This document shows positions 1 through 45,668 of a stretch of 64,000 nucleotides of DNA, in pieces; the stretch's first letter is position 1, and every line of letters begins with the position of its first letter. Made by a program: the position numbers and the translations under genes. This DNA comes from Escherichia phage BEU50. The stretch is taken from sequence record OM632671.1; one strand, 5' to 3'. The notes beneath the pieces are model-generated. The model saw nothing but the letters and a program-made list of their open reading frames with translations. It was not told where the DNA came from and made no database searches.

Positions 1-54
1 CCCTTTTTGCTTTAGATTTTGGATGATAGAATACCTTCATAACGAGGAGACAAC

Positions 55-1875
55 ATGATTAAAAATGAAATTAAGGTATTGTCAGATGTAGAACATATTA
101 AGAAACGTAGTGGTATGTATATTGGTTCTTCTGCTAAAGAAGCACATGAGCGTTTTTTGTTTGGTAAATATCAACAAGTTGAATATGTTCCTGGTCTGGT
201 TAAATTAATCGATGAGATTATTGACAACTCGGTTGATGAAGCTATTCGTACATCATTTAAGTTTGCAAATAAAATTGATGTGCAAATTAAAAATAATCAA
301 GTTTCGGTGGAAGATAACGGACGTGGTATTCCTCAAGGTTTAGTTACCGACCAAACGGGTGAACAAATTCCTGGGCCTGTAGCAGCCTGGACTATTCCAA
401 AGGCTGGTGGTAACTTTGGTGATGACTCTGAACGCAAGACTGGTGGTATGAACGGTGTAGGGAGTAGTTTAACTAATATCTTCTCTACGTTGTTTACAGG
501 CATCACGTCAGATGGCGAAAATGAAATCACTGTTAACTGTTCAAACGGAATGGAAAACAAATCATGGTCTTCTAAGAAATCTAAAGGTAAAGGCACTAAA
601 GTAATCTTCACTCCTGATTTCTCTTCATTTGAAGAGCATAATTTATCTCAAATTTATTTAGATATTACTTTAGACAGACTTCAAACATTGGCAGTCGTTT
701 ATCCTGATATCAAGTTCACATTTAATGGTAAAAAGGTTGATGGTAATTTTAAACGATTTGCTAAACAATTTGGTGAAGATAACATCATTCAAGAAAATGA
801 TAAAGTCTCTATAGCATTCACAACATCACCAGATGGCTTCCGTCATTTAACTTATGTGAATAACATCCATACTAAAAATGGTGGCCATCATGTTGAATGT
901 GTAATGGATGATATCTGTGAACATCTTTTGCCGGGTATTAAAAAGAAATATAAGGGTATTGAAGTCACTAAAGCTCGTGTTAAAGAATGCCTCACAATGT
1001 TGATGTTTATTAGAGACATGAGCAACATGCGTTTTGATTCTCAGACTAAAGAACGTTTAACGTCAACGTATGGTGATATTCGTAATCATATCCAATTAGA
1101 TGCTAAGAAAATTGCTCAGGCACTTCTTAAAAACGAAGCCTTGATTATGCCTATTGTTGAAGCAGCATTAGCTCGTAAATTGGCAGCAGAAAAGGCTGCA
1201 GAAACTAAAGCAGCTAAAAAGGCGACTAAAGCTAAGGTTCATAAGCATATTAAAGCTAACCAATGTGGTAAAGATGCAGATACGACATTGTTTTTAACAG
1301 AAGGTGATTCGGCAATTGGTTATCTCATTGATGTTCGTGACCGTGAACTACACGGCGGATTCCCATTACGTGGTAAGGTGATGAATAGCTGGGGTATGTC
1401 ATATGCTGATATGATGAAGAACAAAGAGCTCTTTGATATCTGTGCTATCACAGGTCTTATTCTTGGTGAAAAGGCAGAGAATACGAACTATCGTAATATT
1501 GCAATTATGACCGATGCCGATCATGACGGTCTTGGAAGTATCTATCCAGCTTTGCTTGCTTTCTTTAGTAATTGGCCTGAATTGTTTGAACAAGGACGTA
1601 TTCGCTTTGTTAAAACGCCTGTAATTATTGCACAAATTGGCAAAACTCAAAAATGGTTTTATACTGTAGCTGAGTATGAAGAAGCTAAAGATACACTGCC
1701 TAAGCATAGTATTCGATACATCAAGGGATTGGGCTCACTTCAGCGAGATGAATATAAAGAAATGATTCAAAACCCTGTGTACGACGTAGTTAAACTTCCT
1801 GAAAATTGGAAAGAACTATTTGAAATGCTCATGGGTAACGACCCTGAACTCCGTAAAGATTGGATGCTAGGATAA
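55..1875 (+). CDS. 39: DNA topoisomerase II large subunit, unsplit 39/60 form
   Basis: 606 aa ORF with RBS GAGGAG; GyrB-like ATPase N-terminus, Toprim motifs EGDSA and DADHDG. Confidence 0.9.
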   Translation: MIKNEIKVLSDVEHIKKRSGMYIGSSAKEAHERFLFGKYQQVEYVPGLVKLIDEIIDNSVDEAIRTSFKFANKIDVQIKNNQVSVEDNGRGIPQGLVTDQTGEQIPGPVAAWTIPKAGGNFGDDSERKTGGMNGVGSSLTNIFSTLFTGITSDGENEITVNCSNGMENKSWSSKKSKGKGTKVIFTPDFSSFEEHNLSQIYLDITLDRLQTLAVVYPDIKFTFNGKKVDGNFKRFAKQFGEDNIIQENDKVSIAFTTSPDGFRHLTYVNNIHTKNGGHHVECVMDDICEHLLPGIKKKYKGIEVTKARVKECLTMLMFIRDMSNMRFDSQTKERLTSTYGDIRNHIQLDAKKIAQALLKNEALIMPIVEAALARKLAAEKAAETKAAKKATKAKVHKHIKANQCGKDADTTLFLTEGDSAIGYLIDVRDRELHGGFPLRGKVMNSWGMSYADMMKNKELFDICAITGLILGEKAENTNYRNIAIMTDADHDGLGSIYPALLAFFSNWPELFEQGRIRFVKTPVIIAQIGKTQKWFYTVAEYEEAKDTLPKHSIRYIKGLGSLQRDEYKEMIQNPVYDVVKLPENWKELFEMLMGNDPELRKDWMLG

Positions 1876-2672
1876 TGAATTATCGTAAAATTTATGATAA
1901 ACTTATCGCTGCGGCTAAAAACCGCAGCATTATTCCTAATTATACTGAGACACATCATATATTGCCAAAATCTATGGGTGGGAGTAATGATAAATCAAAT
2001 CTAGTTAAAATGACCCCTAGAGAGCATTTTATCGCCCATTTATTGCTTTATAAAATTCATAAGAACCGTTCTATGCTTATGGCTATTAGAGCTTTTTACA
2101 TGGGAGCTAGAAATTCTAGAGATTATGATTGGCTTAAACAAGAATTCTCTAAAGAGCACTCTAGATTTATGAAAGAATGGATTGCTAAAAACGGCAACCC
2201 ATTTAAAGGTAAAAAACATACTAAAGCAACAAGAGAATTAATGTCACATATTGCTTCACAACGTATAGGCGAATTAAATCCATTTTATGGTAAAACTCAT
2301 ACGCAAGAAGCAATAGATAAAATAATACAGGCCAACAAGTTATCTTGGGAGAATGGGCGAAAAGCACCTGTAAAAACAAAAGAACACCAGGATAAAATAA
2401 CTAAATCAAGAATGGAAACATTTAAAACAAAAGGATTTAAACCATACACTCCTAGGTCGGAAGAAACTAAAGCTAAGACTAGAGAGTTGTATAAATCTAA
2501 ATATGAAAGAAGGCCTATAAGAATCACAAGTGTAAAAACAGGTGAAACTATTGATTTTAACTATCTTTATGAATTAAGAGAGTATTTAGATATAGGGTCT
2601 TCTAATATATTGAAAGCATTAAATAATCCTAACAGAACCTGCAAAGGTTATAAAATGTGTTGGATGTCCTAA
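1875..2672 (+). CDS. HNH homing endonuclease (I-TevIII/MobA-like)
   Basis: ATG overlaps gene 39 stop (TAATG); N-terminus MNYRKI shared with intron ORF at 28074; HHILPKSMGG HNH motif. Confidence 0.75.
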   Translation: MNYRKIYDKLIAAAKNRSIIPNYTETHHILPKSMGGSNDKSNLVKMTPREHFIAHLLLYKIHKNRSMLMAIRAFYMGARNSRDYDWLKQEFSKEHSRFMKEWIAKNGNPFKGKKHTKATRELMSHIASQRIGELNPFYGKTHTQEAIDKIIQANKLSWENGRKAPVKTKEHQDKITKSRMETFKTKGFKPYTPRSEETKAKTRELYKSKYERRPIRITSVKTGETIDFNYLYELREYLDIGSSNILKALNNPNRTCKGYKMCWMS

Positions 2673-2696
2673 GCTCCTTCGGGAGCTTCATTTTAA
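2672..2696 (+). terminator. rho-independent terminator hairpin AGCTCC-TTCG-GGAGCT plus T-run
   Basis: perfect 6 bp stem, UUCG loop, followed by TCATTTT. Confidence 0.6.
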
Positions 2697-2714
2697 TTTT
2701 AATAAGGCTTAATT

Positions 2715-3815
2715 ATGAAAGTTATGTTTATCCCATCTCGTGCAGTCCCATTTAATCCTGACCGTGTACAAGGTGGTCTTGAAGCGGTTCATTTGAACGT
2801 GTTGAAATATTTAGTTTCTATCGGTGCCGATATTGATTATATCGGCTTTGATAATGACACGTTTGGTGACTGGAAAGTTACACACCATCCTGTTGGTCAT
2901 CTGACTAAATTCAGTCTAGGTATGAGTTATACTATGGCTCGTAAGATTGTTGAACTAGCCGGCATCCATGAATACGATTTTGTTGTTACTATGGAACCGA
3001 CTAAACTAACCGTTCAGGCAATTAAAGACGCAGGTCTCTCTAAAGTTCATAAGAATTTTATGGCAACACCATTTGAACCAGTATCTCGTGGCATTGTTCA
3101 AATTTGGGACCAGACTATTCAAATTCATAAGAATGGCGGTAAGAGTTATGCTCCTACTAAAGCCTTCCGTGAATTTGAACGCAAATATTGTTATATGACT
3201 TCAGGTCTGACTGACAAAATCGATTATGATTATTGGCGAGCAAATCCGTTGTTTGAAGCCGAAGATTATCCGGTTATTTGTTTGACTGAAAAGCCAGAAG
3301 TTCTCCCGGCAACTGATTTGATTATTAGTGCTCAACGTTATGACACTAAGATGCGTCGCACTGATGTTGCTCTTGAAGCAATTAAAGCACTAGGCGAAAA
3401 TGGTGTAGGATACTGTCCTAGTAAATGGGCACCACCAGCTAAATATCCTGTTATTATTGATGCTCCACACAGTGAAATCATGGAACGTCTTAAAACAGCT
3501 AAAGCACTTATTAATACGTGTCCTGACACAGGTACGGTAGAGAATAGTTCTATTGAAGCCATCTCTAAAGGTGTCCCTGTAATCCAGTTAGTTTTTAAGG
3601 ATTATCCTCATGCGACATTTGAATACGACCCAGATACTGTGCGTGTAGAAATTGATTCCTCTACTCCTAAGAAAGAAGTAGTTGCGCTTTACACAAAAGC
3701 TGTATTAGAATTCACTGACACATACGAAGCTCGAGTTAAACGTGCTGAAGCAGTATGGAAGAAGTATAATCGAGATGCAGTTGTTGCGATGTGGGATAAA
3801 ATCTTCACAGCGTAA
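2715..3815 (+). CDS. hypothetical protein, possible GT-B type glycosyltransferase
   Basis: 366 aa ORF; C-terminal E-x7-EA-x3-G-x-PVI pattern (ENSSIEAISKGVPVI); not at a position of any T4 gene I recognise. Confidence 0.5.
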   Translation: MKVMFIPSRAVPFNPDRVQGGLEAVHLNVLKYLVSIGADIDYIGFDNDTFGDWKVTHHPVGHLTKFSLGMSYTMARKIVELAGIHEYDFVVTMEPTKLTVQAIKDAGLSKVHKNFMATPFEPVSRGIVQIWDQTIQIHKNGGKSYAPTKAFREFERKYCYMTSGLTDKIDYDYWRANPLFEAEDYPVICLTEKPEVLPATDLIISAQRYDTKMRRTDVALEAIKALGENGVGYCPSKWAPPAKYPVIIDAPHSEIMERLKTAKALINTCPDTGTVENSSIEAISKGVPVIQLVFKDYPHATFEYDPDTVRVEIDSSTPKKEVVALYTKAVLEFTDTYEARVKRAEAVWKKYNRDAVVAMWDKIFTA

Positions 3816-3831
3816 ATCCTGAATAGCCTGA

Positions 3832-3882
3832 GGCACTATTACACATAAGATGATAGATTATATGGTCTTTAGTAATAGTGCC
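3832..3882 (+). other. long stem-loop (11 bp perfect stem, about 29 nt loop)
   Basis: GGCACTATTAC ... GTAATAGTGCC inverted repeat in the intergenic gap; no T-run. Confidence 0.4.
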
Positions 3883-3907
3883 CTAGGAATCTACTGAAGA
3901 GAATATT

Positions 3908-4108
3908 ATGAGAACATATAACGTGGACTTGGAACTTTTTGATAAAGCAGTGCTCCGGGAATTCCGGCTTATCCAAAGATTTTTTGATATCGAATCAGCA
4001 GAGTCCTTTAAAGAACGCTTTAAAGAAATTCGATATAAAATACAAACCGATACAGCTACTAAAGAAGAACTTCTTGAAGTAGCAGAAATTTTTAAACGTA
4101 ACTTGTGA
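3908..4108 (+). CDS. small hypothetical protein (rIIA.1 position)
   Basis: 66 aa ORF with ATG and upstream purine-rich RBS. Confidence 0.5.
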   Translation: MRTYNVDLELFDKAVLREFRLIQRFFDIESAESFKERFKEIRYKIQTDTATKEELLEVAEIFKRNL

Positions 4109-4120
4109 TGAGAGAAAAAC

Positions 4121-6178
4121 ATGATTATCGAAACGGCTAAAGAAACGATTATTGGTTCTGGTGGTAAGAGCACAGCATTCACTATTCAAGGCAATAGCAA
4201 AGTTTATAAGATTTTGTCTAATGACCTTTATACAAACAAAGAATTGGCTTGTGTACGTGAATTAATCACAAACTGTATCGATGGACAAATTCTTAATGGT
4301 TGCACTGATAAGTTTATTGTTCAGGCTCCAGGTCGTTTAGACCCACGTTTTGTAGTTCGAGACTTTGGTCCTGGTATGAGTGATTTCACCATTCGAGGTA
4401 ATGACGAAGAGCCAGGAATCTATAACTCATATTTTGCTTCAACTAAAACATCGAGTAATGATTTCATTGGTGGATTCGGACTCGGCTCTAAAGCTCCATT
4501 AGCATATACTGATACGTTTAACATTACTTCTTATCATAATGGTGAAGTTCGTGGTTATGTAATTTATCAAGATGACAGTGGTCCACAAATTAAGCCAACC
4601 TTTGTAGATAAGATGGGCCCTGATGACCGTACGGGTGTAGAAGTAGTTGTGCCTGTTAACCCGGAAGATTTTGAAAAGTTCGCATCTGAAATTGCGTATG
4701 TTATGCGTCCTCTCGGCGATATTGCAGAAGTTCGTGGTGTTAAAGATATCAAATACTTCCCGGAATTCGATGATGTTTATTTAGCCAAGGAAGCTCCATG
4801 GGGTGAACGTGGTAATATCATGGCTGTTTATGGTGGTATTGTATATCCAATCGGAAGTGTTATTAAAGAACAAACATGGATGATGACGCGATGCACTACA
4901 GCTTATATCAAATTCCCTATGGGTGAACTAGATGTAGCCCCGTCTCGTGAAGCATTGTCATTTGATAAACGTACAGTAGCAAATATTCATAAACGTGTTG
5001 CAGAAATTGATGCAAAATTATTTGCTGAAGATTCTAAGAAATGGATTGATTGTGAATATCCACGTCATGTATTCCGTGAAATCGATTCTCTTGGTTACTC
5101 TGCTCGTAAATACATGGAAAAAGCCGGTTCTAATATTGAATCACTGAAATATTCTAAAGAACAACTAACTTATTCTGAGTTGTACAAACGTTTTAAAATG
5201 GGACCTGAATGGTGCAACCTTGGCGTTGTATATGATATCGTTTCAGATCCACGACTTCGTCGTATTCGTGAAAGCGGAAGCTCGTCTGCAACTATTTCAA
5301 TTAATAGCCTGCTAGGTATTAGTCGTAAGCATATTGATATTGTTATTGACGATGTGAAAGGCCGCGTACCAATGATGCGTGCTCTGAACGATGCTTTGAC
5401 TTCCACCGATGCATCAACACTCGTTGATAAGGTTCCTTCCGGACGGGGTAGTAGCGTATTATTCATTAACCCGGAAGATGAAGTTGCAATGAAACTTCTG
5501 GAACGATTAAAGGTTATTTTCGCTGGTGATAGCCTTAAATTTTATAAGACCTCTGAAATTCTTGCATTAGTTAAACCATGGATTGAAGTTAAAGAACGTT
5601 CATCGCAGCCTCGTCCTAAATCCCCAAGTGCTCATCGGTTCTTTAAGAATGAAAACGATGTTTGGGTATCAGAAGATCTCTTTATTCCGGCCGGTAAAGC
5701 TGATGAGATTCAAGGTTATGTTGTAATTCGTAATCGTTCTAACGCTGAATGTCTTGACGCAGATAAAGGTTGGTTGAACTATGATTCTAATTTCTTGACT
5801 CGTATTGCTGATTTGTCAGGTATTAAAGAGTTCACTGTAGTCCGTCCACAGATTGCTAAGAAAGTTCGTAAACTTGGTGAAGTAGAATGCTTGTTCGAAA
5901 AATCAATTAATGACTATATTACGCTAATTGATAAAGTGGATTATGATGAGTATGTATCACCAAGTCGTAGAGCACAGCCTTATTTGAATCATATTACTCG
6001 TAACGAAGAGCTTAACTTCCTTAGTAAGTATTTTAGCTCTAAGAACAAAGAAATCAGTAAAGACTTTGCAAAACTCTCAACAGTAAATAATCGCTGGGGA
6101 TGGAATCGATTCGCAGGTGCTGATAACAGAGACCTGAACAGGAAGTTAGAATTGTGCTTAAAGAGGACTCTTTTGTAG
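4121..6178 (+). CDS. rIIA: rIIA membrane-associated protein, 3-prime end ends at a junction
   Basis: 685 aa; GHKL-like boxes ([19 protein letters not shown]); about 40 aa shorter than T4 rIIA as I recall it. Confidence 0.85.
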
Positions 6179-6429
6179 ACCCAGAAATTTTCTACGGTTT
6201 GCGTGCCCGTGAAATTGAAATTGAGCCACAACCTACAGTTAAAATTGAAGGTGGTCAACACCTGAACGTTAACGTTCTGCGTCGTGAAACTCTGGAAGAT
6301 GCAGTTAAGCATCCGGAAAAATATCCGCAATTGACTATCCGTGTATCCGGTTATGCAGTTCGCTTTAACTCTCTGACTCCGGAACAGCAGCGCGACGTTA
6401 TCGCTCGTACCTTTACCGAGAGTTTGTAA
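6154..6429 (+). CDS. GrcA/YfiD-like autonomous glycyl radical cofactor, 5-prime end probably truncated
   Basis: C-terminal RVSGYAVRF glycyl-radical motif, near-identical to E. coli GrcA C-terminal half; only a GTG start available. Confidence 0.75.
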
Positions 6430-6650
6430 TGGCAAAGATAATTATTGAAGGTTCTGAAGATGTGCTAAATGCTTTCGCCGAGTGGTTTAGTAATTCAGGT
6501 GAACAACAATTTAATGAAGCGTGGAATATGGGTGATATTGATGGAATTTATCCTACGACAGAAATTTCTGTTCAGGGATATGGCATTCATGAACCTATTC
6601 GTTTAGTTGAATACGATTTATGTACTGGCGAGGAAGTCAAATATGATTGA
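6429..6650 (+). CDS. hypothetical small protein (vs.5 position)
   Basis: 73 aa ORF, ATG overlaps upstream stop. Confidence 0.5.
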   Translation: MAKIIIEGSEDVLNAFAEWFSNSGEQQFNEAWNMGDIDGIYPTTEISVQGYGIHEPIRLVEYDLCTGEEVKYD

Positions 6651-6909
6651 AGATATTAAGGGTTATAAACCACATACCGACGAAAAAATCGGTAAAGTAA
6701 ATGCTATTAAAGACGCTGAAGTTCGTTTAGGACTTATCTTTGATGCTTTATACGATGAATTTTGGGAAGCATTTGATAGCTGTGAAGATGATGAACTCGC
6801 GAAGAATTACGCCGAAAGCCTCGATCAGTTAACTATTGCTAAAACGAAACTCAAAGAAGCAAGTATGTGGGCTTGCCGTGCTGTGTTCCAACCAGAGGAA
6901 AAATACTAA
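6643..6909 (+). CDS. hypothetical small protein, candidate Vs.4/Acb2-like
   Basis: 88 aa from ATG 6643 with RBS GAGGAAG; assigned by synteny (second ORF before regB) only. Confidence 0.4.
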
Positions 6910-7187
6910 TGGCTCAATTAAGCGCAGGGTTTGGTTATGAGTATTATACTGCCCCTCGTCGTGTATCTGTTGCTCCTAAGAAAATTCAAAGTCTTGATGA
7001 TTTCCAGGAAGTAGTCCGTAACGCTTTCCAGGACTATGCACGCTATCTTAAAGAAGATTCACAGGACTGTCTCGAAGAAGATGAAATTGCTTACTATACG
7101 CAGCGTCTTGAACAGCTCAAAAATCTACATGAGGTTCGTGCCGAAGTTTCAAAGTCTATGAATAAATTGATTAGATTTAAAGAATAA
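6909..7187 (+). CDS. hypothetical small protein (vs.3 position)
   Basis: 92 aa from ATG 6909 with RBS AGAGGAA. Confidence 0.5.
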
Positions 7188-7189
7188 CT

Positions 7190-7219
7190 GTTTACTTTTC
7201 CTCTTGACTGTGGTATAAT
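7190..7219 (+). promoter_or_regulatory. T4-type early promoter
   Basis: GTTTAC, 18 nt spacer, TATAAT; upstream of regB. Confidence 0.65.
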
Positions 7220-7246
7220 TTTTCTATCAGTTAAGAGGAGAATAAC

Positions 7247-7708
7247 ATGACTATCAACACAGAAGTTTTTATCCGTCGAAATAAGCTTCGTCGTCACTTT
7301 GAGTCGGAGTTTCGTCAAATTAACAATGAGATTCGTGAGGCATCAAAAGCAGCAGGGGTCTCATCGTTTCATCTAAAATATTCTCAGCATCTTCTTGATC
7401 GTGCAATTCAACGGGAGATTGATGAGACATATGTTTTTGAATTATTCCACAAAATAAAAGACCATGTTTTAGAAGTTAATGAATTCCTGAGTATGCCTCC
7501 GCGTCCTGACATTGATGAGGATTTTATTGATGGGGTTGAATACCGTCCTGGACGTTTAGAAATCACAGATGGAAATCTTTGGCTTGGATTTACAGTTTGT
7601 AAACCTAATGCGAAGTTCAAAGACCCGTCGCTTCAATGCAGGATGGCAATTATCAATAGTCGTCGTTTACCAGGAAAGGCTTCTAAAGCAGTAATTAAAA
7701 CTCAATGA
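7247..7708 (+). CDS. regB: RegB site-specific endoribonuclease
   Basis: 153 aa, RBS AAGAGGAG; sequence matches RegB as I recall it. Confidence 0.8.
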   Translation: MTINTEVFIRRNKLRRHFESEFRQINNEIREASKAAGVSSFHLKYSQHLLDRAIQREIDETYVFELFHKIKDHVLEVNEFLSMPPRPDIDEDFIDGVEYRPGRLEITDGNLWLGFTVCKPNAKFKDPSLQCRMAIINSRRLPGKASKAVIKTQ

Positions 7709-7715
7709 GGTAAGC

Positions 7716-8261
7716 ATGAGAAAAGCACTACTCGCTGGTCTATTGGCCATTTCAATGATGGCACATAGCTCCGAGCATACTTTCAGTAATGTCCAACTCG
7801 ATAACATGCGTTACGCGTATCAATTCGGGGAACAATTTTCTAAGGATGGAAAATATAAAACACACAAAAACATCCACAAGAGCGGATTGGGTCATATAAT
7901 GGCTGCTATTTTGTGGCAAGAAAGCTCTGCCGGAGTTAATTTAAAATCTAAACCAAAGCATCACGCCTACGGAATGTTCCAAAATTATTTGCCTACTATG
8001 CGAGCGAGAGTTAAGGAACTTGGTTATAATATGACCGATGCTGAAATAAAAAGAATGTTGAATAAACGATCCAATTCAGCTTCCTGGGCGTACATTGAAC
8101 TTTCTTATTGGTTAAATATACATAAGGGCGATATAAGAAAAGCAATATCCTCTTATAATTCGGGATGGAATGTTAAAGCAGGTTCTAAATATGCTTCTGA
8201 AGTCCTAGAAAAGGCTAATTACCTTAAAAATAATAAACTTTTGGAAATAGTAAATGACTAA
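7716..8261 (+). CDS. secreted lytic transglycosylase-like protein (SLT domain)
   Basis: signal peptide; ESSAG, YGMFQ and SYNSGW motifs resembling SLT catalytic motifs. Confidence 0.6.
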   Translation: MRKALLAGLLAISMMAHSSEHTFSNVQLDNMRYAYQFGEQFSKDGKYKTHKNIHKSGLGHIMAAILWQESSAGVNLKSKPKHHAYGMFQNYLPTMRARVKELGYNMTDAEIKRMLNKRSNSASWAYIELSYWLNIHKGDIRKAISSYNSGWNVKAGSKYASEVLEKANYLKNNKLLEIVND

Positions 8262-8595
8262 AATTTTGGTTTTATGTATAGGATTAATTTCATTTTCTGC
8301 GTTAGCAGATACATCATATACTGAAATTAGAGAGTATGTAAACCGTACTGCAGCGGATTATTGCGGGAAAAATAAAGCATGCCAAGCTGAATTTGCGCAG
8401 AAATTAATATATGCATATAAAGACGGAGAAAGAGATAAATCAAGCAGATACAAAAATGATACATTGTTAAAACGATATGCTAAAAAGTGGAATACCTTAG
8501 AATGTTCAGTTGCGGAGGAGAAAGATAAAGCCGCTTGTCATTCAATGGTTGACCGTTTAGTAGATTCTTATAATCGAGGATTGAGTACTAGATGA
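8254..8595 (+). CDS. small secreted protein (vs position)
   Basis: 113 aa with N-terminal signal peptide (…FSALA). Confidence 0.5.
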   Translation: MTKILVLCIGLISFSALADTSYTEIREYVNRTAADYCGKNKACQAEFAQKLIYAYKDGERDKSSRYKNDTLLKRYAKKWNTLECSVAEEKDKAACHSMVDRLVDSYNRGLSTR

Positions 8596-9071
8596 TTGTA
8601 AAATATATCAAGGGCGATATTGTCGCCCTATTTCTTCAAGGTAATATTATTGCGCACGGGTGCAATTGCTTCCACACAATGGGCTCTGGCGTAGCAGGTC
8701 AATTAGCAAGAGCCTATCCCAAAATTTTAGAAATAGATAAAACCACTACCGAGTACGGTTCTCGTGATAAATTAGGCGATATGTCTATTGTTTTTAAACA
8801 TAGTCCTACGGGATTTGGTATATGCTATAACCTGTATACACAATACGAACCGGGTCCTAATCTTGATTATGGTGCTTTAGTAAACTGCATGATAGAATTA
8901 AATCTACAGGCAGAAACCCTTTTGTTTAAACCAGTAATTTACATTCCACGCATAGGTTGCGGTATTGCTGGTGGTGATTGGGATAAGGTTTCTAAATTAA
9001 TCGACATGTTTACTCCTGATATTGATTTAATAGTGGTGGATTATGAAAGTACATTACCCGCATCCGTTTGA
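8592..9071 (+). CDS. macro domain protein (ADP-ribose binding/hydrolase family)
   Basis: 159 aa; IAHGCNCFHTMGSGVAGQ motif typical of macro domains. Confidence 0.7.
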   Translation: MIVKYIKGDIVALFLQGNIIAHGCNCFHTMGSGVAGQLARAYPKILEIDKTTTEYGSRDKLGDMSIVFKHSPTGFGICYNLYTQYEPGPNLDYGALVNCMIELNLQAETLLFKPVIYIPRIGCGIAGGDWDKVSKLIDMFTPDIDLIVVDYESTLPASV

Positions 9072-9255
9072 TCCTAAAAACAAAGTGGAAATTATTCGTC
9101 AATGGGAACGCATTTGCCGTACTAAATGCCCAATTAATAGTCCACATGATGTAGATAAAGACTATATTGGAACATTCGTTGAATATACCTTTATTGATAG
9201 GAAAGGTCGTAAACAACATGTAGAAGAATATTGTTTAAAGGTTACATGGTTATGA
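9043..9255 (+). CDS. hypothetical small protein
   Basis: 70 aa ORF, ATG start, overlaps macro gene end. Confidence 0.35.
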   Translation: MKVHYPHPFDPKNKVEIIRQWERICRTKCPINSPHDVDKDYIGTFVEYTFIDRKGRKQHVEEYCLKVTWL

Positions 9256-9458
9256 GCCAAACTAGTATTCTTAAAAATGCCCATTGTGAAAAGTGTAAGT
9301 GGCCGATTGTTTTTGCTTTATGTAATGATGAAATGGCTTGTGATTTCGATTATTGGTGCTATTGTTCTAATAAAGGATGCATCAATCATAAAGGTGAAGG
9401 ATTTTATTCAGGATTTTATCCTTATCCTGATTTCGTTAAAGAAGGTAAACCGAAATGA
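9246..9458 (+). CDS. hypothetical Cys-rich small protein
   Basis: 70 aa from ATG 9246; CEKC…C…C…C pattern. Confidence 0.4.
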   Translation: MVMSQTSILKNAHCEKCKWPIVFALCNDEMACDFDYWCYCSNKGCINHKGEGFYSGFYPYPDFVKEGKPK

Positions 9459-9628
9459 ATAGTTTTGAGTTACAATATGAAGTGTTACGTGAGCTTGATA
9501 ATTTAATTGAACTCGCTGTCAATAAAGGTTTTGCCATTGGAATCGGTCAAAAAGATACTGGTCATTTAACTATGGAAATATTTAAGCAAAAGCGAATTAT
9601 TTTAAAACTCCTGGAAATTAATATATGA
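9455..9628 (+). CDS. hypothetical small protein
   Basis: 57 aa, ATGA overlap with upstream stop. Confidence 0.3.
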   Translation: MNSFELQYEVLRELDNLIELAVNKGFAIGIGQKDTGHLTMEIFKQKRIILKLLEINI

Positions 9629-9819
9629 GTCTGAGTAAAGAATAAAAAGATAAATTGTTTGAGCTTATCCATGAACTTCTAGATGAGCATGCAGAAGCAA
9701 ACACCTTTTATGATGAATACGGCCCGCTATCTCCCGAACAGCAAGAAGAATTTGCTGATCGGTTTGATAAGAAAGAAAACGAATTAATAGCTTATGTGAA
9801 TATGCTTTAAGAAGGTGAT

Positions 9820-10401
9820 ATGGCGAGTTTAATTTTTACTTACGCAGCAATGAATGCTGGAAAATCTGCTTCTCTTTTGACTGCTGCACATAATTATAAA
9901 GAACGCGGAATGAGTGTATTAGTTCTTAAGCCTGCTATTGATACTCGCGATTCTGTCTGTGAAGTCGTTTCTCGCATTGGAATTAAGCAGGAAGCGAATA
10001 TTATTACAGATGATATGGATATTTTCGAGTTCTATAAATGGGCTGAAGCACAAAAAGATATTCATTGCGTATTTGTAGATGAAGCTCAGTTTTTAAAAAC
10101 TGAACAGGTGCATCAATTAAGTCGAATTGTTGATACATATAATGTTCCTGTTATGGCTTATGGATTAAGGACTGATTTCGCTGGAAAATTGTTTGAAGGT
10201 TCTAAAGAACTTTTAGCGATTGCAGATAAACTTATTGAACTAAAGGCAGTTTGTCATTGCGGCAAAAAAGCGATTATGACAGCTCGATTAATGGAAGATG
10301 GAACACCAGTTAAAGAAGGTAATCAAATCTGTATTGGTGATGAAATTTATGTTTCTTTGTGTAGAAAACATTGGAACGAATTAACTAAAAAGCTCGGTTA
10401 G
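9820..10401 (+). CDS. tk: thymidine kinase
   Basis: 193 aa; P-loop AAMNAGKS; C-terminal Cys cluster. Confidence 0.9.
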   Translation: MASLIFTYAAMNAGKSASLLTAAHNYKERGMSVLVLKPAIDTRDSVCEVVSRIGIKQEANIITDDMDIFEFYKWAEAQKDIHCVFVDEAQFLKTEQVHQLSRIVDTYNVPVMAYGLRTDFAGKLFEGSKELLAIADKLIELKAVCHCGKKAIMTARLMEDGTPVKEGNQICIGDEIYVSLCRKHWNELTKKLG

Positions 10402-10443
10402 TGCAAAAGTTATAAATAGGTTTATCTAACTAAAGGGGTATAT

Positions 10444-10656
10444 ATGCTACAATTAACTGAAAAGCAACTTCGCAATCTTACTGTTCTTCAATTAGATGAA
10501 ATTCGTAGGGAAGTTGGAAATATCATTTCAGCTTTGCGTCGAGAAGTATCACTCAACCAATCTCCGGCAGACTATACTAGATTGCGAAATTTTGAAAAAT
10601 ACCTTGATAAAGTTAAGGCCGTGCATCGGCATAAAGTAAATACAGGACAAAAATGA
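10444..10656 (+). CDS. hypothetical small protein
   Basis: 70 aa ORF in tk-nrdC region. Confidence 0.45.
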
Positions 10657-10668
10657 TAGGAGGCCTTT

Positions 10669-10962
10669 ATGGCCTTAAAAGCAACGGCACTATTTGCCAT
10701 GCTAGGATTAGCGTTTGCTTTATCTCCATCGATTGAAGCGAATGTCGATCCTCATTTTGATAAATTTATGGAATCTGGTATTAGACACGTTTATATGCTT
10801 TTTGAAAATAAAAGCGTAGAATCATCTGAACAGTTCTATAGTTTTATGCGAACGACTTATAAAAATGACCCGTGCTCTTCTGATTTTGAATGTATAGAGC
10901 GAGGCGCGGAGATGGCACAATCATACGCTAGAATTATGAACATTAAATTGGAGACTGAATGA
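10669..10962 (+). CDS. hypothetical secreted small protein
   Basis: 97 aa, RBS AGGAGG, N-terminal signal peptide. Confidence 0.5.
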   Translation: MALKATALFAMLGLAFALSPSIEANVDPHFDKFMESGIRHVYMLFENKSVESSEQFYSFMRTTYKNDPCSSDFECIERGAEMAQSYARIMNIKLETE

Positions 10963-11345
10963 AATTCAGCGACTTTTCACAAAGTGGAAAACCTTCAAAG
11001 GCAGATGAATACTTAGGTTTATTAATGGCTGCACAAGCTTATTTTCATTCTGCGCATTTTGAAACTAAAAGTTATGCTAGACACAAAGCATACGATTTTA
11101 TTTTCTCCGAGTTGCCAGATTTGATTGATAAATTTGGTGAGCAATATTTGGGGTATTCTGGTAGAAAATACACACCTTCAATTCCAGATGCTAGTAAACT
11201 TCCTACCGACACAATTAAAATGATTGATCGCATACTAGACCAATCTAACAGCATTTATAAAGAAATGCCTCCAGCCATTCAAAGCACGATAGATGATATC
11301 ACTGGGATGTTTTATCAGAGTAAATATCTTCTTTCCCTCGAATAA
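10959..11345 (+). CDS. hypothetical protein
   Basis: 128 aa ORF, overlapping start with upstream stop. Confidence 0.5.
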
Positions 11346-11350
11346 CGTTA

Positions 11351-11372
11351 GTCTCCTTCGGGAGACTTTTTT
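11351..11372 (+). terminator. rho-independent terminator GTCTCC-TTCG-GGAGAC plus T6
   Basis: perfect hairpin followed by TTTTTT. Confidence 0.7.
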
Positions 11373-11382
11373 CATTTTACCG

Positions 11383-11412
11383 GTTTACTTTCCATTTGAG
11401 CTGTGATACTAT
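11383..11412 (+). promoter_or_regulatory. T4-type early promoter
   Basis: GTTTAC, about 18 nt, TACTAT. Confidence 0.55.
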
Positions 11413-11440
11413 ACAACCATCGGATAAAGAGGAGAACATC

Positions 11441-11629
11441 ATGAAAATTGAAGCACTTAATCAAGAAGGAAATATCTACGTCATCATTAATGGTGATTTT
11501 TTCGTCGACATGGATGAAGTTACCAGTGAAGAACTTGTAGAACTTCTTAAGAAACGTTATAATATGTGTGATGAAGTTGCAACTCACATGGCGTGTGCAA
11601 TATTCTCTCTTTCATATGTGGTGGAATAA
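11441..11629 (+). CDS. hypothetical small protein
   Basis: 62 aa from ATG 11441 with RBS AAGAGGAG. Confidence 0.45.
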
Positions 11630-11645
11630 TGAAAACTGAAAAGCA
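11620..11645 (+). repeat. 26 nt direct repeat copy 1 (GGTGGAATAATGAAAACTGAAAAGCA)
   Basis: identical 26-mer spanning stop/RBS/start; second copy at 12010. Confidence 0.8.
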
Positions 11646-11832
11646 AGCGGATAAAATTAAGGAATTAGTGGCTTCAATTCGTAAAGCAGATGAAGAGCTG
11701 ATTGACTTTGCTTGGTATTCATCGGGTATTTCGAATAAAGGCATTAAAGACTTTGAAACTAAAGTTGATAATGCTTTAGAAGCGTTAGATATGTTTCTTG
11801 ATGAAATTATCGATCATAATACGAGAGTTTAA
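11629..11832 (+). CDS. hypothetical small protein (MKTEKQ start)
   Basis: 67 aa from ATG inside the 26 nt repeat. Confidence 0.45.
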   Translation: MKTEKQADKIKELVASIRKADEELIDFAWYSSGISNKGIKDFETKVDNALEALDMFLDEIIDHNTRV

Positions 11833-11834
11833 GT

Positions 11835-12029
11835 ATGCTAACACGTGAACAGTTTGAAAAAATCATTAAATTAGCACGTGATGTTGAAATAGATTCATAT
11901 CAATTAGCAGTTGAGCATTGTGAAGGATATTCATACGATGGTATAGAATCAGCTAAAAGGGATTTGGATAAATCTAAAGCTAAGTTAGTCCAATATCTTG
12001 AAATGATTAGGTGGAATAATGAAAACTGA
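11835..12029 (+). CDS. hypothetical small protein
   Basis: 64 aa ORF. Confidence 0.45.
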   Translation: MLTREQFEKIIKLARDVEIDSYQLAVEHCEGYSYDGIESAKRDLDKSKAKLVQYLEMIRWNNEN

Positions 12030-12035
12030 AAAGCA
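12010..12035 (+). repeat. 26 nt direct repeat copy 2
   Basis: identical to 11620-11645. Confidence 0.8.
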
Positions 12036-12192
12036 GATGTTTTTAATGAAACTAATTGAAGAATATGCTAATGCAGTTTCTGACTATGAGCGTTCTTCTC
12101 GGGAAAGAGGTACAGCTTTCGCCAAAGAAGAAATGAAAATCATGGTTGATGCTCACACAAAGCTTCAGAATTTTATTGAAAACAACATTTAA
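12019..12192 (+). CDS. hypothetical small protein (MKTEKQ start)
   Basis: 57 aa from ATG inside repeat copy 2. Confidence 0.35.
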   Translation: MKTEKQMFLMKLIEEYANAVSDYERSSRERGTAFAKEEMKIMVDAHTKLQNFIENNI

Positions 12193-12194
12193 CG

Positions 12195-12224
12195 GTTTAC
12201 AAGTTGGCAAGGTTATGGTATAGT
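12195..12224 (+). promoter_or_regulatory. T4-type early promoter
   Basis: GTTTAC, 18 nt, TATAGT. Confidence 0.55.
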
Positions 12225-12359
12225 AATCTTGTCAACTGTCAAGGAGAAGAGAATGAAAGTTTTGTTTGTTGTGTATGTAATGATTCAATATAATTACCCA
12301 ATGTTTACTTATAATCTGGTGAACAACATTATTGATATTATTCAAAGGAGTATGTAATT

Positions 12360-12590
12360 GTGAGTGAGTCGAAGAGAATCAATATGAAACGATTAGTATT
12401 AGAAGTTAGTCCGCTTTTTGGTGAATTGGCTATAGAAAAAGTAAATAACATGTATCGTTTGACGCAAGAAGACGATATGCTATATTTTACGCCTAGTGAA
12501 ATCATTCATTTAACCCAAATTGAATATCCTTATACTGATAAAATAGTAAGTATCAATGATGAGCACAAAATTCATTGCTCGTTTGATTGA
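12360..12590 (+). CDS. hypothetical small protein
   Basis: 76 aa; GTG start 8 nt after AAGGAG (alternative ATG at 12384). Confidence 0.4.
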   Translation: MSESKRINMKRLVLEVSPLFGELAIEKVNNMYRLTQEDDMLYFTPSEIIHLTQIEYPYTDKIVSINDEHKIHCSFD

Positions 12591-12680
12591 AGTTGAAGCC
12601 CAAATTGCAGAACACACCAAATTGTTAAAAGCTCTTAATGCAAAAGCAAATGGTTTACGTAATGCTATTGAGGTATTGAA

Positions 12681-12995
12681 ATGAAAAAGCGTCTATTAGA
12701 AGACATTGCAGCTTCAAGTAATTCCAGTTTAATTAAAATTATTATGGCCGGTGAAGAAGACGATCTGGAAATGCGTGGAAAGATTTATGGTTGTGATGAT
12801 TATAGCAGCCCTATTAATTGGGATTCTGTAATGGTCATGGTTGAACGTCGCGAAAGGGCTTCTAAAAACGTTCCTAATTGCCCTGAATGTGGAACTGAAC
12901 AGGTGCAATTAGTCCATTGGCAGACTAATAATCTTCGTTATAAATGTCGCCATTGTAAACACCGATTTGACCGAGAAGAAAATGACAAAGCGTAA
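12681..12995 (+). CDS. hypothetical zinc-ribbon protein
   Basis: 104 aa; CPECG…CRHCKH. Confidence 0.5.
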
Positions 12996-13224
12996 AGAAT
13001 ATATGGAGACCGCCGAAAAGGCAGTCCGTGAATTAGCAATAGCTTATTATAATGAACACGGTAAATTTCCTGATAGATACAGCGTGCTTAAATCTGCTTT
13101 AACTCGTTCATATAAAAATATGCTATCAGAAGTAAGTGATATTATATACAAACATAAAGAACAAACGGGCCAAAGTCTTGATTACGACGAGACTTTTAAA
13201 CAAGTACTAGGAATTAAGGAATAA
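12982..13224 (+). CDS. hypothetical small protein
   Basis: 80 aa from ATG 12982. Confidence 0.45.
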
Positions 13225-13225
13225 T

Positions 13226-13489
13226 ATGTTTAAAGTATATGGTTATGATAGCAACATCCATAAATGTGTGTATTGCGATAATGCAAAACGTCTTTTGACC
13301 GTGAAGAAACAGCCGTTTGAATTTATCAACATTATGCCGGAAAAAGGTGTTTTTGATGATGAGAAAATCGCTGAGCTTCTGACTAAACTAGGTCGTGATA
13401 CTCAAATCGGCTTAACAATGCCTCAGGTATTTGCTCCTGATGGAAGTCATATTGGTGGATTTGACCAATTGCGGGAATACTTTAAATGA
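13226..13489 (+). CDS. nrdC: glutaredoxin/thioredoxin NrdC
   Basis: 87 aa; CVYC active site. Confidence 0.85.
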   Translation: MFKVYGYDSNIHKCVYCDNAKRLLTVKKQPFEFINIMPEKGVFDDEKIAELLTKLGRDTQIGLTMPQVFAPDGSHIGGFDQLREYFK

Positions 13490-13701
13490 TTCTCGAAGGA
13501 ACTGATTATATCCATGATTACCGCGGAAGCGCGGTATATGTAGGTGATGAAGTTGCAGTTTACTACGGGTATGGAACTTTGATGACAGCCAAGGTTATTC
13601 AAATTAAAAATAATCGTGCTAAACTCGAAGTTTATTATTCTAACGGCGAAAAGTCTATTTCTAAGTGGAAATACGGCGATTGTATGGTCAAACTGGGGTA
13701 A
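13486..13701 (+). CDS. hypothetical small protein
   Basis: 71 aa, ATGA overlap with nrdC stop. Confidence 0.45.
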   Translation: MILEGTDYIHDYRGSAVYVGDEVAVYYGYGTLMTAKVIQIKNNRAKLEVYYSNGEKSISKWKYGDCMVKLG

Positions 13702-13703
13702 AT

Positions 13704-13874
13704 ATGATTTACGATATTAGTGCAGCAAGAGCTCCATCAATGGTTGCTATTCCAGCTGAAGAATTAGATCGTCTTCATAAAATTGAAGAACTTCTGTGGG
13801 AAATTGAATCTGATTTGCCATCAGGATTAGAATCCTGGATTGATTATGAAGAACTTAATAAGCTTCGGGGTTAA
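13704..13874 (+). CDS. hypothetical small protein
   Basis: 56 aa from first ATG of the 13665 ORF. Confidence 0.3.
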   Translation: MIYDISAARAPSMVAIPAEELDRLHKIEELLWEIESDLPSGLESWIDYEELNKLRG

Positions 13875-13996
13875 ACCCTGGTGGGCGGCTAGATGGGAAA
13901 CTGTAGAGCCAGAGCCGGAAGAACCGGTTTACACTGATGAAGAAACAGTATATAATGAACCAACGATAAATGACTTAATTGATATGGAGATGGGAC

Positions 13997-14482
13997 ATGA
14001 TTACAGTAGATAAGTGGTTTAGAATTAATCGTGTTGATACAGGGCTATGTAATTACTGGCCGGAACTTAGTGCAGGTACTGTCTTTAAAGTTCGTGAACT
14101 TGCAAAAGAATGTGAAGATGATATAGAACCTGATACTGGAATTATTGAAATTGAACTTTCTGATGGAAAGATTATTAACATCTATGATAAGCCAATTACG
14201 TATTGGTGCTTGTGGAATACTGAATCCGTTGAAAATGGCGAAATTGAAGAAGTTGTAGAGAGAACTAGCCAAGATGCTCAGAAGCCTAAAGCCGCTTTTC
14301 AAGGTGAACGTATTTCATACGCATTAGCTAAATTAGCTGCACAAGAAAATAACGATGGTTATGAAGGAAATTTAATGCAAGCTGCCGCAGAGTACATTGA
14401 ATGGCTTGAAACTCAAATTTCTTTTTCTGACCAAATGATTCGGCAATATAAGCGATTGCATCAAATGTTTTACAATACTTGA
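13997..14482 (+). CDS. pin: Pin-like protein (protease inhibitor position)
   Basis: 161 aa from ATG 13997 with RBS GGAGA; length and position match T4 pin. Confidence 0.55.
   Translation: MITVDKWFRINRVDTGLCNYWPELSAGTVFKVRELAKECEDDIEPDTGIIEIELSDGKIINIYDKPITYWCLWNTESVENGEIEEVVERTSQDAQKPKAAFQGERISYALAKLAAQENNDGYEGNLMQAAAEYIEWLETQISFSDQMIRQYKRLHQMFYNT
14408..14482 (+). repeat. direct repeat copy A (3-prime end of pin)
   Basis: two sub-blocks (26 nt and 48 nt) recur at 14483-14510 and 14648-14695. Confidence 0.75.
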
Positions 14483-14695
14483 AAAAACTCAAAATTCTTT
14501 TTCTGACAAGGCATTTTAATGAAAACCGAATTGGTTTATACTGAAAAGTTAAATGGCGGTAAGGTTTGGAAACTTTTTATTAAAGGACATTCTACGGACC
14601 CTCATATGACCACTTGCGTAGGAACCTATTCTCGTCCTACTAAAAAGATGATTCGACAGTATAAACGATTGCATCGAATGTTTTACAATACTTAA
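14483..14695 (+). repeat. direct repeat copy B flanking a 58-codon ORF
   Basis: AAAAACTCAAAATTCTTTTTCTGACA at 14483 and ATGATTCG…TACAATACTTAA at 14648. Confidence 0.75.
14519..14695 (+). CDS. hypothetical small protein sharing Pin C-terminal 15 aa
   Basis: 58 aa ending MIRQYKRLHRMFYNT, the same tail as the pin ORF. Confidence 0.4.
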   Translation: MKTELVYTEKLNGGKVWKLFIKGHSTDPHMTTCVGTYSRPTKKMIRQYKRLHRMFYNT

Positions 14696-14704
14696 ATAAT
14701 AAAT

Positions 14705-14735
14705 ACCCTTATCTATTTAAGGTAAGGGTTTTATT
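14705..14735 (+). terminator. hairpin plus T-run before gene 49
   Basis: ACCCTTA … TAAGGGT stem followed by TTTTATT. Confidence 0.5.
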
Positions 14736-15209
14736 ATGTTATTGACTGGCAAATTATACAAAGAAGAAAAACAAAAATTTTATAATGTACAAAACGGTAA
14801 ATGCTTAATTTGCCAACGAGAACTAAATCCTGATGTTCAAGCTAATCACCTTGACCATGACCATGAATTAAATGGACCAAAAGCAGGAAAGGTACGTGGA
14901 TTGCTTTGTAATCTCTGCAATGCTGCAGAAGGTCAAATGAAGCACAAATTTAATCGTTCTGGCTTAAAGGGTCAAGGTGTTGATTATCTTGAATGGTTAG
15001 AAAATTTACTTACTTATTTAAAATCCGATTACACCCAAAATAATATTCACCCTAACTTTGTTGGAGATAAATCAAAGGAATTTTCTCGTTTAGGAAAAGA
15101 GGAAATGATGGCCGAGATGCTTCAAAGTGGATTTGAATATAATGAATCTGACACCAAAACACAATTAATAGCTTCATTTAAGAAGCAGCTTAGAAAGAGT
15201 TTAAAATGA
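14736..15209 (+). CDS. 49: endonuclease VII (Holliday junction resolvase)
   Basis: 157 aa; CLICQ…CNLC zinc site plus HLDHDHE. Confidence 0.85.
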   Translation: MLLTGKLYKEEKQKFYNVQNGKCLICQRELNPDVQANHLDHDHELNGPKAGKVRGLLCNLCNAAEGQMKHKFNRSGLKGQGVDYLEWLENLLTYLKSDYTQNNIHPNFVGDKSKEFSRLGKEEMMAEMLQSGFEYNESDTKTQLIASFKKQLRKSLK

Positions 15210-16027
15210 ATGTAGTATATAAACTATCATTTATTAATAGAATTAATGCTAAAACCCCACCATATTATTACATTGGAAGTAAAACCAATTGCACTTTTGA
15301 TGGAACGAATATTATTGATAAAAATGGTAAATTTTATTATTCGTCTTCGTCATCTTCTGAATTTCAAAAAGCCTTATTGAAAGAAACGCCGAAAGTTGAA
15401 ATATTATATTTTCAATTAGTCGGAGATGAACAAATAACTAGCATTGAAGCTGAATTTCAAAAGAATATAGAAAAAGATGTATGGAATAAAGAGTATTTTA
15501 ATTTAGCATATGCTGATGGCAAATTTACGACATATGGTATTTCTCCTTCTAAAGAAACTAGAGAAAAGCAATCAATAACCATGATTAAAAGAAATCGTAA
15601 TAAAGGCAAAAATCATGGATTTTATGGAAAGCATCATACTAATTTAGCTAGAAAGAAAATATCAGAAGCTTCTAAAAAATACTGGAAAGAAAATCCACAT
15701 CGTGGATTTTCGCATACAAAGGAAGCTAAAATTAAAATTGGAATTTCATCTTCTATCAGGCATAAAGGAAGTGGAAATCCGATGTATGGTGTAAAACCTT
15801 GGAAAACTCCGAGCGCAATTAAATCTGGTACTTGTATATTATGGTTAAAATACGCAGAAATTTTATATGATTATTTAAGTCCAGATTTTAAAAGTAAATC
15901 ATCTATTTTTGCGGATTTAAACTTACCGAAATTTAGAATTGATAATTTCATCAAAAGGTTTAAAATGGGTTGGAACCCATATTTAGACGAAGAATTTCAA
16001 AAGGATAAATTAGAATTATGTCTTTAG
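15206..16027 (+). CDS. GIY-YIG/NUMOD-type homing endonuclease-like protein (seg-like)
   Basis: 273 aa; VVYKLS…YYYIGSK and repeated GxxHT/NPMYG NUMOD-like motifs; inserted between 49 and nrdD. Confidence 0.6.
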   Translation: MNVVYKLSFINRINAKTPPYYYIGSKTNCTFDGTNIIDKNGKFYYSSSSSSEFQKALLKETPKVEILYFQLVGDEQITSIEAEFQKNIEKDVWNKEYFNLAYADGKFTTYGISPSKETREKQSITMIKRNRNKGKNHGFYGKHHTNLARKKISEASKKYWKENPHRGFSHTKEAKIKIGISSSIRHKGSGNPMYGVKPWKTPSAIKSGTCILWLKYAEILYDYLSPDFKSKSSIFADLNLPKFRIDNFIKRFKMGWNPYLDEEFQKDKLELCL

Positions 16028-17016
16028 AAAAAGATGTTTTAAATTTTATTTCAAATAAAGATAAAGAATTAAATACAGAAAACGCCAACAAAGATTCTCG
16101 CGTCTTTCCAACAAAAAGAGATTTAATGGCCGGTATTGTTTCTAAACATATCGCTTGTCGTATTCTTCCAAGTCATATTGTAAATGCCCATAATGTTGGA
16201 TTAATTCATTTTCATGATTTAGATTACAGTATATCATTGCCTTTTACTAATTGCTGTTTAGTAGATTTAAAAGGAATGCTTGAGAACGGGTTTAAGCTCG
16301 GTAATGCACAGATTGAAACTCCTAAATCAATCGGTGTTGCTACTGCAATTATGGCACAAATTACTGCACAGGTTGCTTCTCACCAATATGGCGGAACTAC
16401 ATTTGCTAATGTCGATAAAGTACTTTCTCCTTATGTTAAACGCACCTATGCAAAACATATCGAAGACGCAGAAAAATGGCAAATCGCCGATGCGTTAAAT
16501 TATGCTCAATCTAAAACAGAAAAAGACGTATACGATGCATTCCAAGCTTATGAATATGAAGTAAATACTCTCTTTAGTTCAAACGGACAGACTCCTTTTG
16601 TAACAATTACATTTGGTACAGGAACTGACTGGACTGAACGAATGATTCAGAAAGCAATTCTGAAAAATCGTATTAAAGGTCTTGGTCGTGATGGGATAAC
16701 TCCTATTTTCCCTAAGCTTGTTATGTTTGTTGAAGAAGGTGTTAATCTTTATAAAGACGATCCGAACTATGATATTAAGCAGCTTGCTCTAGAGTGTGCA
16801 AGCAAAAGAATGTATCCTGATATTATTTCAGCTAAGAACAATAAAGCTATCACTGGTTCATCTGTTCCTGTTTCTCCAATGGGTTGCCGTAGTTTCTTGG
16901 GCGTATGGAAAGATTCGACTGGTAATGAAATTCTTGATGGACGTAATAATCTTGGCGTTGTAACACTGAATCTTCCTCGCATCGCGTTAGATTCTTATAT
17001 TGGAACACAGTTCAAT
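16018..17016 (+). pseudogene. nrdD: anaerobic ribonucleotide reductase NrdD, 3-prime truncated (N-terminal ~333 codons only)
   Basis: NrdD-like sequence to …[17 protein letters not shown]; remainder of the ORF to 17103 is reverse complement of gene 37 start; no glycyl-radical C-terminus. Confidence 0.8.
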
Positions 17017-17150
17017 CCTGAGTCATCTTTTGTGAAAATTGTTTTATCTTTTAAGTTTATAGCCAATTCACCTTCGGCTAATACTGAAGCAGCAGGACGT
17101 TGACCTGCAGTTTTGCTTCTTTTAAATTGTATTTGTTTTAAAGTAGCCAT
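16995..17150 (-). pseudogene. 37: long tail fibre distal subunit gene 37, 51-codon N-terminal stub
   Basis: [13 protein letters not shown]…TKDDSG then LNCVPI-stop; gp37-like only to codon 45. Confidence 0.75.
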
Positions 17151-45610: not shown

Positions 45611-45639
45611 TTTACAAACACATGGATGTGTGATACTAT
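45610..45639 (+). promoter_or_regulatory. T4-type early promoter
   Basis: GTTTAC, 18 nt, TACTAT. Confidence 0.55.
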
Positions 45640-45668
45640 CATCCCATAAACAACATGAGGAAAACGTT

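Follow-up and report, generated by a model that had tools for sequence, protein, structure and literature searches.

Gene content and order at the vs.4 locus

The window, by which we mean the whole 64,000-nucleotide stretch of Escherichia phage BEU50 (sequence record OM632671.1) used for this analysis, carries on its plus strand a vs.4 (acb2) coding sequence at 6643..6909, stop included, the 88-aa product of which is predicted to be a hexameric cyclic-dinucleotide sponge. The ORF was read directly from the sequence and is intact, running for 267 nt from an ATG at 6643 to a TAA at 6907-6909, and a Shine-Dalgarno-like GAGGAAG of putative function (6630..6636, plus strand) lies 6 nt before the ATG. 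A longer version of 100 aa starting from the TTG at 6607 was present in the mechanical ORF list and was rejected, because T4, the crystallised T4 protein and all homologues use the ATG at 6643, which is also the one accompanied by the Shine-Dalgarno-like motif.

The neighbouring genes are packed closely around vs.4 on the same strand. Upstream lies the vs.5 ORF (6429..6650, plus strand, 73 aa; phrog_1986, E=1e-43), and the overlap of its stop with the vs.4 start (ATGATTGA) suggests translational coupling of the two genes. Downstream, the vs.3 ORF begins within the vs.4 stop (TAATG); it occupies 6909..7187 on the plus strand, encodes 92 aa (phrog_2037, E=1.5e-40) and sits in the same slot as T4 vs.3. 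Tight packing of this kind is typical of T4 early gene clusters. The vs.5 gene annotated in T4 (NC_000866, 63381-63557) is only 58 aa long and ends 36 nt before vs.4; in the window and in all 8 public contigs examined, vs.5 is 73 aa long and overlaps the vs.4 start.

Further downstream were identified the regB endoribonuclease gene (7247..7708, plus strand; Pfam PF10715 REGB_T4, E=1.4e-68), which had served the preliminary description as its synteny anchor, followed by vs.1 (7716-8261), vs (8254-8595), the macro-domain gene tk.4 (8592-9071), several small tk.x ORFs and the thymidine kinase gene tk (9820-10401). The resulting order of vs.5, vs.4, vs.3, regB, vs.1, vs, tk.4-tk.1 and tk is identical to that at 60.3-63.6 kb of T4 NC_000866, where vs.4 is an 88-aa gene on the minus strand at 63078-63344, and the order downstream of vs.4 is identical in T4 and in the 8 public contigs. 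Synteny of this extent with T4 is far beyond chance. The 88-aa ORF at 6643-6909, its place as the second gene upstream of regB and the T4-like order from vs.5 to tk were all as the preliminary description had given them. Upstream, the T4 order can be followed only as far as the 3' part of vs.6, where the block is cut at about 6157; because of this junction, the window differs from the T4 locus in having no vs.8, no vs.7 and no 5' part of vs.6.

Regulatory and overlapping features were also searched for. No convincing sigma-70-like promoter was found between 6157 and 6643, and a 9/12 match at 6123-6152 was not above chance. The best sigma-70-like match of the region, at 7191-7219 (TTTACT, 17 nt, TATAAT, with an extended -10 TG; 10/12), sits in the vs.3-regB gap just upstream of regB and belongs to that gene. 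On the minus strand beneath vs.4 the ORF list contained no ORF of at least 30 aa, and an Rfam search of the whole window returned no family match. Terminator-like hairpins numbered 3 against 1.1±1.1 expected, and those inside the vs.4 coding sequence (minus strand, 6694-6675 and 6877-6858) are weak matches to the consensus. Nothing points to an RNA element under vs.4.

Relationship of the product to Vs.4, Acb2 and other anti-defence proteins

The vs.4 product was compared with all PDB chain sequences, and the best match was T4 Vs.4 in complex with cGAMP (7uq2), to which 83 of 88 residues are identical (94%) over the full length (E=4.4e-53). The Pfam domain PF24729 (Acb2/Tad1 hairpin domain) was recovered along the entire profile (1-58 of 58) with a score of 71 bits (E=9.4e-20; gathering cut-off 27), and the protein also matched phrog_717 (E=5.6e-32), PHROG 717 being the family that holds the Vs.4 homologues (Jenson et al., PMC10097602). 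The preliminary description had proposed the Vs.4/Acb2 identity from position and size alone and had named a lack of similarity to these proteins as what would speak against it; the sequence agrees with the proposal, and the similarity looked for is there. The window protein is thus an ortholog of T4 Vs.4 (T4 Acb2; NP_049728), with which it shares the length of 88 aa, a place upstream of regB with vs.5 and vs.3 as neighbours and a predicted hairpin, and from which it differs by five substitutions at the N-terminal end of helix 1 and at the hairpin tip.

More distant members of the family were reached less directly. As a single sequence the protein found the PaMx33 Acb2 only weakly (E about 0.09), and a profile built from 44 homologues reached it at E=7.4e-5. 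An AlphaFold2 (AF2) model of the monomer, built on the homologue alignment, had a pLDDT of 87.5 and folded into a two-helix hairpin with helices at 13-45 and 50-81. A Foldseek search with this model placed 7uq2 at the top of the PDB (E=7e-10, TM 0.77), followed by the Acb2 structures 8h2x and 8h2j (TM about 0.70), and generic helical hairpins ranked far below these. The PaMx33 Acb2 (p26; PDB 8h2j, 8h2x and 8ixz) therefore shares with the window protein its Pfam family and its two-helix hairpin; its Y11/K26 dinucleotide-binding pair aligns with Y8/K23, and its mechanism, a hexameric sponge that takes up three cyclic dinucleotides (CDNs), is the same as the one proposed here for the window protein. 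The two proteins are nevertheless only about 22% identical, and the PaMx33 Acb2 has the added capacity to bind cyclic trinucleotides, for which it uses R67, T74 and a kinked helix, whereas the T4 type has D61 and T68, no kink and no cA3 binding.

The name of the Pfam family also raises Tad1 (Thoeris anti-defence 1), and the window protein might accordingly be a Tad1-like sponge for the Thoeris signal gcADPR and not a CBASS antagonist. Tad1 has the PF24729 hairpin domain and follows the same sponge logic, in which an immune signal is sequestered, but its main ligand is gcADPR, and no direct sequence or fold match between Tad1 and the window protein was detected. Tad1 has further structure beyond the hairpin; the 88-aa protein is the hairpin alone. 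Although both Tad1 and Tad2 are reported to bind CBASS nucleotides too (PMC10680739), sequence and fold alike give Vs.4 and Acb2 only as the nearest solved relatives of the window protein, the family profile found no Tad1 chain at E<=0.01, and the T4 protein, at 94% identity, is a characterised binder of cGAMP and other CDNs. Membership in Tad1 was rejected on these sequence and fold matches, and we give a Thoeris-directed sponge practically no credence.

Another T4 protein with the same goal of neutralising CBASS cyclic nucleotides is Acb1 (T4 gene 57B), which differs from Vs.4 in being a signal-cleaving enzyme of unrelated fold and no sponge. In normal T4-like genomes Acb1 lies about 10 kb upstream of vs.4 (as at locus L008), and a tblastn search of the window with the C-terminal 124-aa Acb1 fragment from that locus found no homologue.

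With high confidence, and with nothing found that speaks directly against it, we regard 6643-6909 as the T4-type vs.4 (acb2), the gene of a predicted cGAMP-sponge hexamer that opposes CBASS. The gene and its family are both known and already well described, its place is the usual one, and the allele is common.

Conserved residues and predicted ligands

The T4 protein provides the functional frame for reading the sequence, and the preliminary description was right that it has been described as an anti-CBASS nucleotide sponge. The Kd of T4 Vs.4 for 3',3'-cGAMP is about 30 nM, and the protein forms a hexamer with three ligands (Jenson et al., PMC10097602); the published Kd values for T4 Vs.4/Acb2 considered here lie at about 30-84 nM, and knockout of T4 vs.4 sensitised the phage to CBASS about 50-fold (PMC10097602; Cao et al.). 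The roles of individual residues come from mutagenesis and the crystal structure of T4 Vs.4 (PMC10097602), in which the ligand bases are stacked by Y8 and F82 and hydrogen bonds and salt bridges are made by Y8, H11, K23 and R79. Function was lost in mutants of Y8, F82, L29, A66, A73 and A77 and also in the screen mutants T12I, S74N and A77I, and F33A destabilised the hexamer (PMC10097602).

Relative to T4, Y8, H11, T12, K23, L29, F33, L60, A66, A73, S74, A77, R79 and F82 are unchanged in the window protein. This set contains all of the cGAMP-contact residues (Y8, H11, K23, S74, R79 and F82) and, as judged from the sequence, the model being a monomer, all of the hexamer-interface residues (L29, F33, A66, A73 and A77). 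Eight positions (Y8, H11, K23, A66, S74, A77, R79 and F82) are invariant across the 44 homologues. The nucleotide sequence differs from T4 vs.4 at 20 of 267 nt, and the 12 synonymous against 5 non-synonymous codon differences indicate that vs.4 is under purifying selection.

The five substitutions are E13D, L44F, N46S, C50D and F52L. In the AF2 model residue 13 is the first of helix 1, and residues 44-52 run from the end of that helix through the loop into the start of helix 2, so that four of the five cluster at the hairpin tip. This tip falls within the hypervariable middle segment of the Vs.4 family: the mean frequency of the commonest residue among the 44 homologues was 0.43 at 37-65 versus 0.86 in the N-terminal and 0.90 in the C-terminal segment. 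In the homologue alignment the N- and C-terminal thirds, which hold the ligand pocket and the hexamer interface, are invariant, and the half that includes the hairpin tip (window residues 37-65) is hypervariable, and indels there reach 5 residues. The positions on which cyclic-trinucleotide binding depends in other Acb2 proteins fall in this variable part, and this may reflect diversification of the second pocket.

As to ligand range, T4-Acb2 binds a spectrum of dinucleotides but not cA3 or cAAG (Cao et al.). This exclusion was put down to an unkinked helix together with Y37, A57, L60, D61 and T64, which narrow the second pocket, and a D61R substitution did not restore cA3 binding (Cao et al.). 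The residues that clash with cA3 (Y37, A57, L60, D61 and T64), and also T68, are all as in T4, and because this T4 state is kept, the window allele is expected to bind cyclic dinucleotides and not cyclic trinucleotides. With its T4-like D61 and T68, it would fall outside the cyclic-trinucleotide-binding Acb2 subgroup of the PaMx33/JBD67 type.

By analogy with the T4 protein, the early-expressed 88-aa two-helix hairpin would assemble into a hexamer with three inter-subunit pockets, each of which would accommodate one 3',3'-cGAMP or other cyclic dinucleotide, with the ligand bases held between Y8 and F82 and with hydrogen bonds and salt bridges supplied by Y8, H11, K23 and R79. The CD-NTase product would be sequestered and not degraded, the CBASS effector (e.g. 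the phospholipase CapV) would stay inactive, and the phage would complete its cycle. Hexamerisation, ligand binding and the anti-CBASS phenotype of the window allele are ones that we infer from this T4 counterpart.

T4 Acb2 also takes up 2',3'-c-di-AMP (Kd about 62 nM), and this binding sets off the Panoptes decoy system; phages that escape Panoptes carry loss-of-function mutations in acb2, F82C among them. Because F82 and Y8 are both kept, the window allele is expected to trigger decoy systems of the Panoptes type as well. Vs.4/Acb2 is among the main means by which T-even phages defeat cGAS-like (CBASS) immunity and at the same time the trigger that Panoptes decoy systems sense, so that from its presence one can predict which defended hosts a phage is able to infect.

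The location of the substitutions allows a different reading within the same family, namely that L44F, N46S, C50D and F52L at the tip have changed the ligand spectrum, for example through gain of cyclic-trinucleotide binding or through lower affinity for the decoy ligand 2',3'-c-di-AMP, which would amount to evasion of Panoptes-like systems. The contrast between the hypervariable segment 37-65 and the invariant ends would fit such a change; Acb2 homologues reportedly differ in the residues that cA3 binding requires (Cao et al.), and decoy systems should select on sponge specificity. The cA3-clash residues and T68 are nonetheless identical to those of T4, the dinucleotide pocket is unaltered, the reported Panoptes escapers are all loss-of-binding or loss-of-function mutants with no tip variant among them, and the allele is one of several that are common in Tequatrovirus. 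We consider a changed spectrum very unlikely and retain a sponge with the T4 ligand range. The copy in the window is a standard and apparently functional one and adds no new biology.

Distribution of vs.4 and the mosaic window

The vs.4 family was found in 1,231 phage records, 59 of which contain a protein at least 99% identical to that of the window. The exact 88-aa sequence occurs on contigs in 465 blocks of a public assembly collection; among the 8 places listed, 7 are T4-like contigs of 165-169 kb, which come either from a human gut metagenome or from an assembly of E. coli/Shigella, and the downstream neighbours of the exact protein are the same in 8 of 8. A second vs.4-like copy was not found in the window by tblastn. 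Most deposited records call the product a 'hypothetical protein', and the practical gain of the present analysis is a secure annotation for an ORF that is mostly deposited under that name.

Two of the records that carry the gene are unusual. In PV654520.1 ('Pseudomonas phage vB_PSGBLB0006', 142 kb, host P. aeruginosa ATCC 9027) a 100% identical Vs.4 was found in the T4-type order, and the host label and the short genome look inconsistent with Tequatrovirus. In GCA_025336695.1 a bacterial contig (JAODFN010000001.1, 489 kb; locus L011, 9322-10008) runs directly into phage vs.5-vs.4-vs.3-regB. The part before the phage genes is apparently chromosomal, with thioredoxin, SpoU-type methylase and uracil-DNA glycosylase genes and a 98-aa glycyl-radical gene, and resembles the ung-grcA region of E. 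coli. The point of joining seems to fall within the homology between host grcA and phage vs.6, and either chimeric assembly or recombination could account for it.

The window itself is a mosaic of two kinds of T-even sequence. Positions 1-6156, which contain the topoisomerase large subunit, a homing endonuclease, rIIA.1 and rIIA, match Mosigvirus phages (98.8% identity to phage a20 versus only about 68-78% to T4). The vs.4 gene lies in a block of Tequatrovirus type of 10.9 kb (6158..17016, plus strand), which extends from 91 nt inside vs.6 to inside nrdD between Mosigvirus-like flanks, is 95-98% identical to T4-like contigs and includes regB, tk, rI, nrdC and 49 besides vs.4/acb2. From 17022 to 64000 the sequence is again Mosigvirus-like, beginning 129 nt into gene 37 and passing through gene 36 (17159-17809, minus strand), gene 35 (17872-18987, minus strand) and gene 34 (18996-22865, minus strand) on to the capsid genes. 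Compared with a20, 12.1 kb has been replaced by 10.9 kb from an unrelated genome region of another genus, and the stretch lost comprises most of 37, 38, the holin gene (t), asiA, motA, 52, ndd, denB, rIIB and the 3' end of rIIA.

Both junctions (about 6157 and 17016-17022) are blunt and non-syntenic and cut reading frames, with possible microhomology of about 5 nt or less. At the first (6140-6175), the Mosigvirus-like rIIA is cut about 60 codons early and read through to give a 685-aa ORF (4121-6178), and on the other side are the 3' two-thirds of the Tequatrovirus vs.6/grcA-like gene, a 91-aa remnant at 6154-6429. At the second, the Tequatrovirus nrdD breaks off within the gene (at about T4 coordinate 44354), and the Mosigvirus-like gene 37 follows in reverse orientation. 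No phage record spans the first junction, its exact sequence is absent from IMG/VR, the JGI metagenomes and the GTDB genomes, and there is no record of the fused 685-aa rIIA' product.

The vs.4 start is only about 490 bp downstream of the abnormal junction at about 6157, and if the contig is real, transcription of vs.4 would have to rely on promoters on the rIIA side. It is quite probable that vs.4 is intact but that its context is an artefact, the window being chimeric or spliced, uninformative about the Mosigvirus-like flanks and perhaps not expressing vs.4 as arranged. The non-syntenic alternation of Mosigvirus-like (1-6156 and 17022-64000) and Tequatrovirus-like sequence (6158-17016), the blunt cuts through rIIA and vs.6 at one end and through nrdD and gene 37 at the other, the absence of the first junction, the one that was searched, from the three collections and the lack of a record for the rIIA' product all argue for an artefact, although a genuine illegitimate recombinant is possible as far as the sequence goes. 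An artefactual context would touch provenance only and leaves the identity of vs.4 and the assignment of its function unaffected.

Most likely the mosaic arose as a chimeric assembly or by an in-silico splice, and the window as written could not be a viable phage. A very unlikely reading combines the two themes, in that illegitimate recombination would have put the vs.4 block into a Mosigvirus backbone and the tip allele (F44, S46, D50 and L52) would tune specificity for ligand or decoy; if true, it would represent a real non-syntenic transfer of an anti-defence block between T-even genera. The surrounding sequence, being mosaic, is not to be read as one phage genome, and vs.4 should not be attributed to the flanking Mosigvirus-like genome.

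Two further features were observed towards the far end of the Tequatrovirus-type block. The nrdD gene of the window is without the T4 group I intron that carries I-TevII (16553-16556 versus T4 44814-45850), about 1.03 kb of T4 being absent between adjacent matching segments of nrdD. Between gene 49 and nrdD lies a 273-aa ORF (15206-16027) with no T4 DNA match, which by its sequence (…YYIGSKTN…) resembles a homing endonuclease of the GIY-YIG/Seg type.
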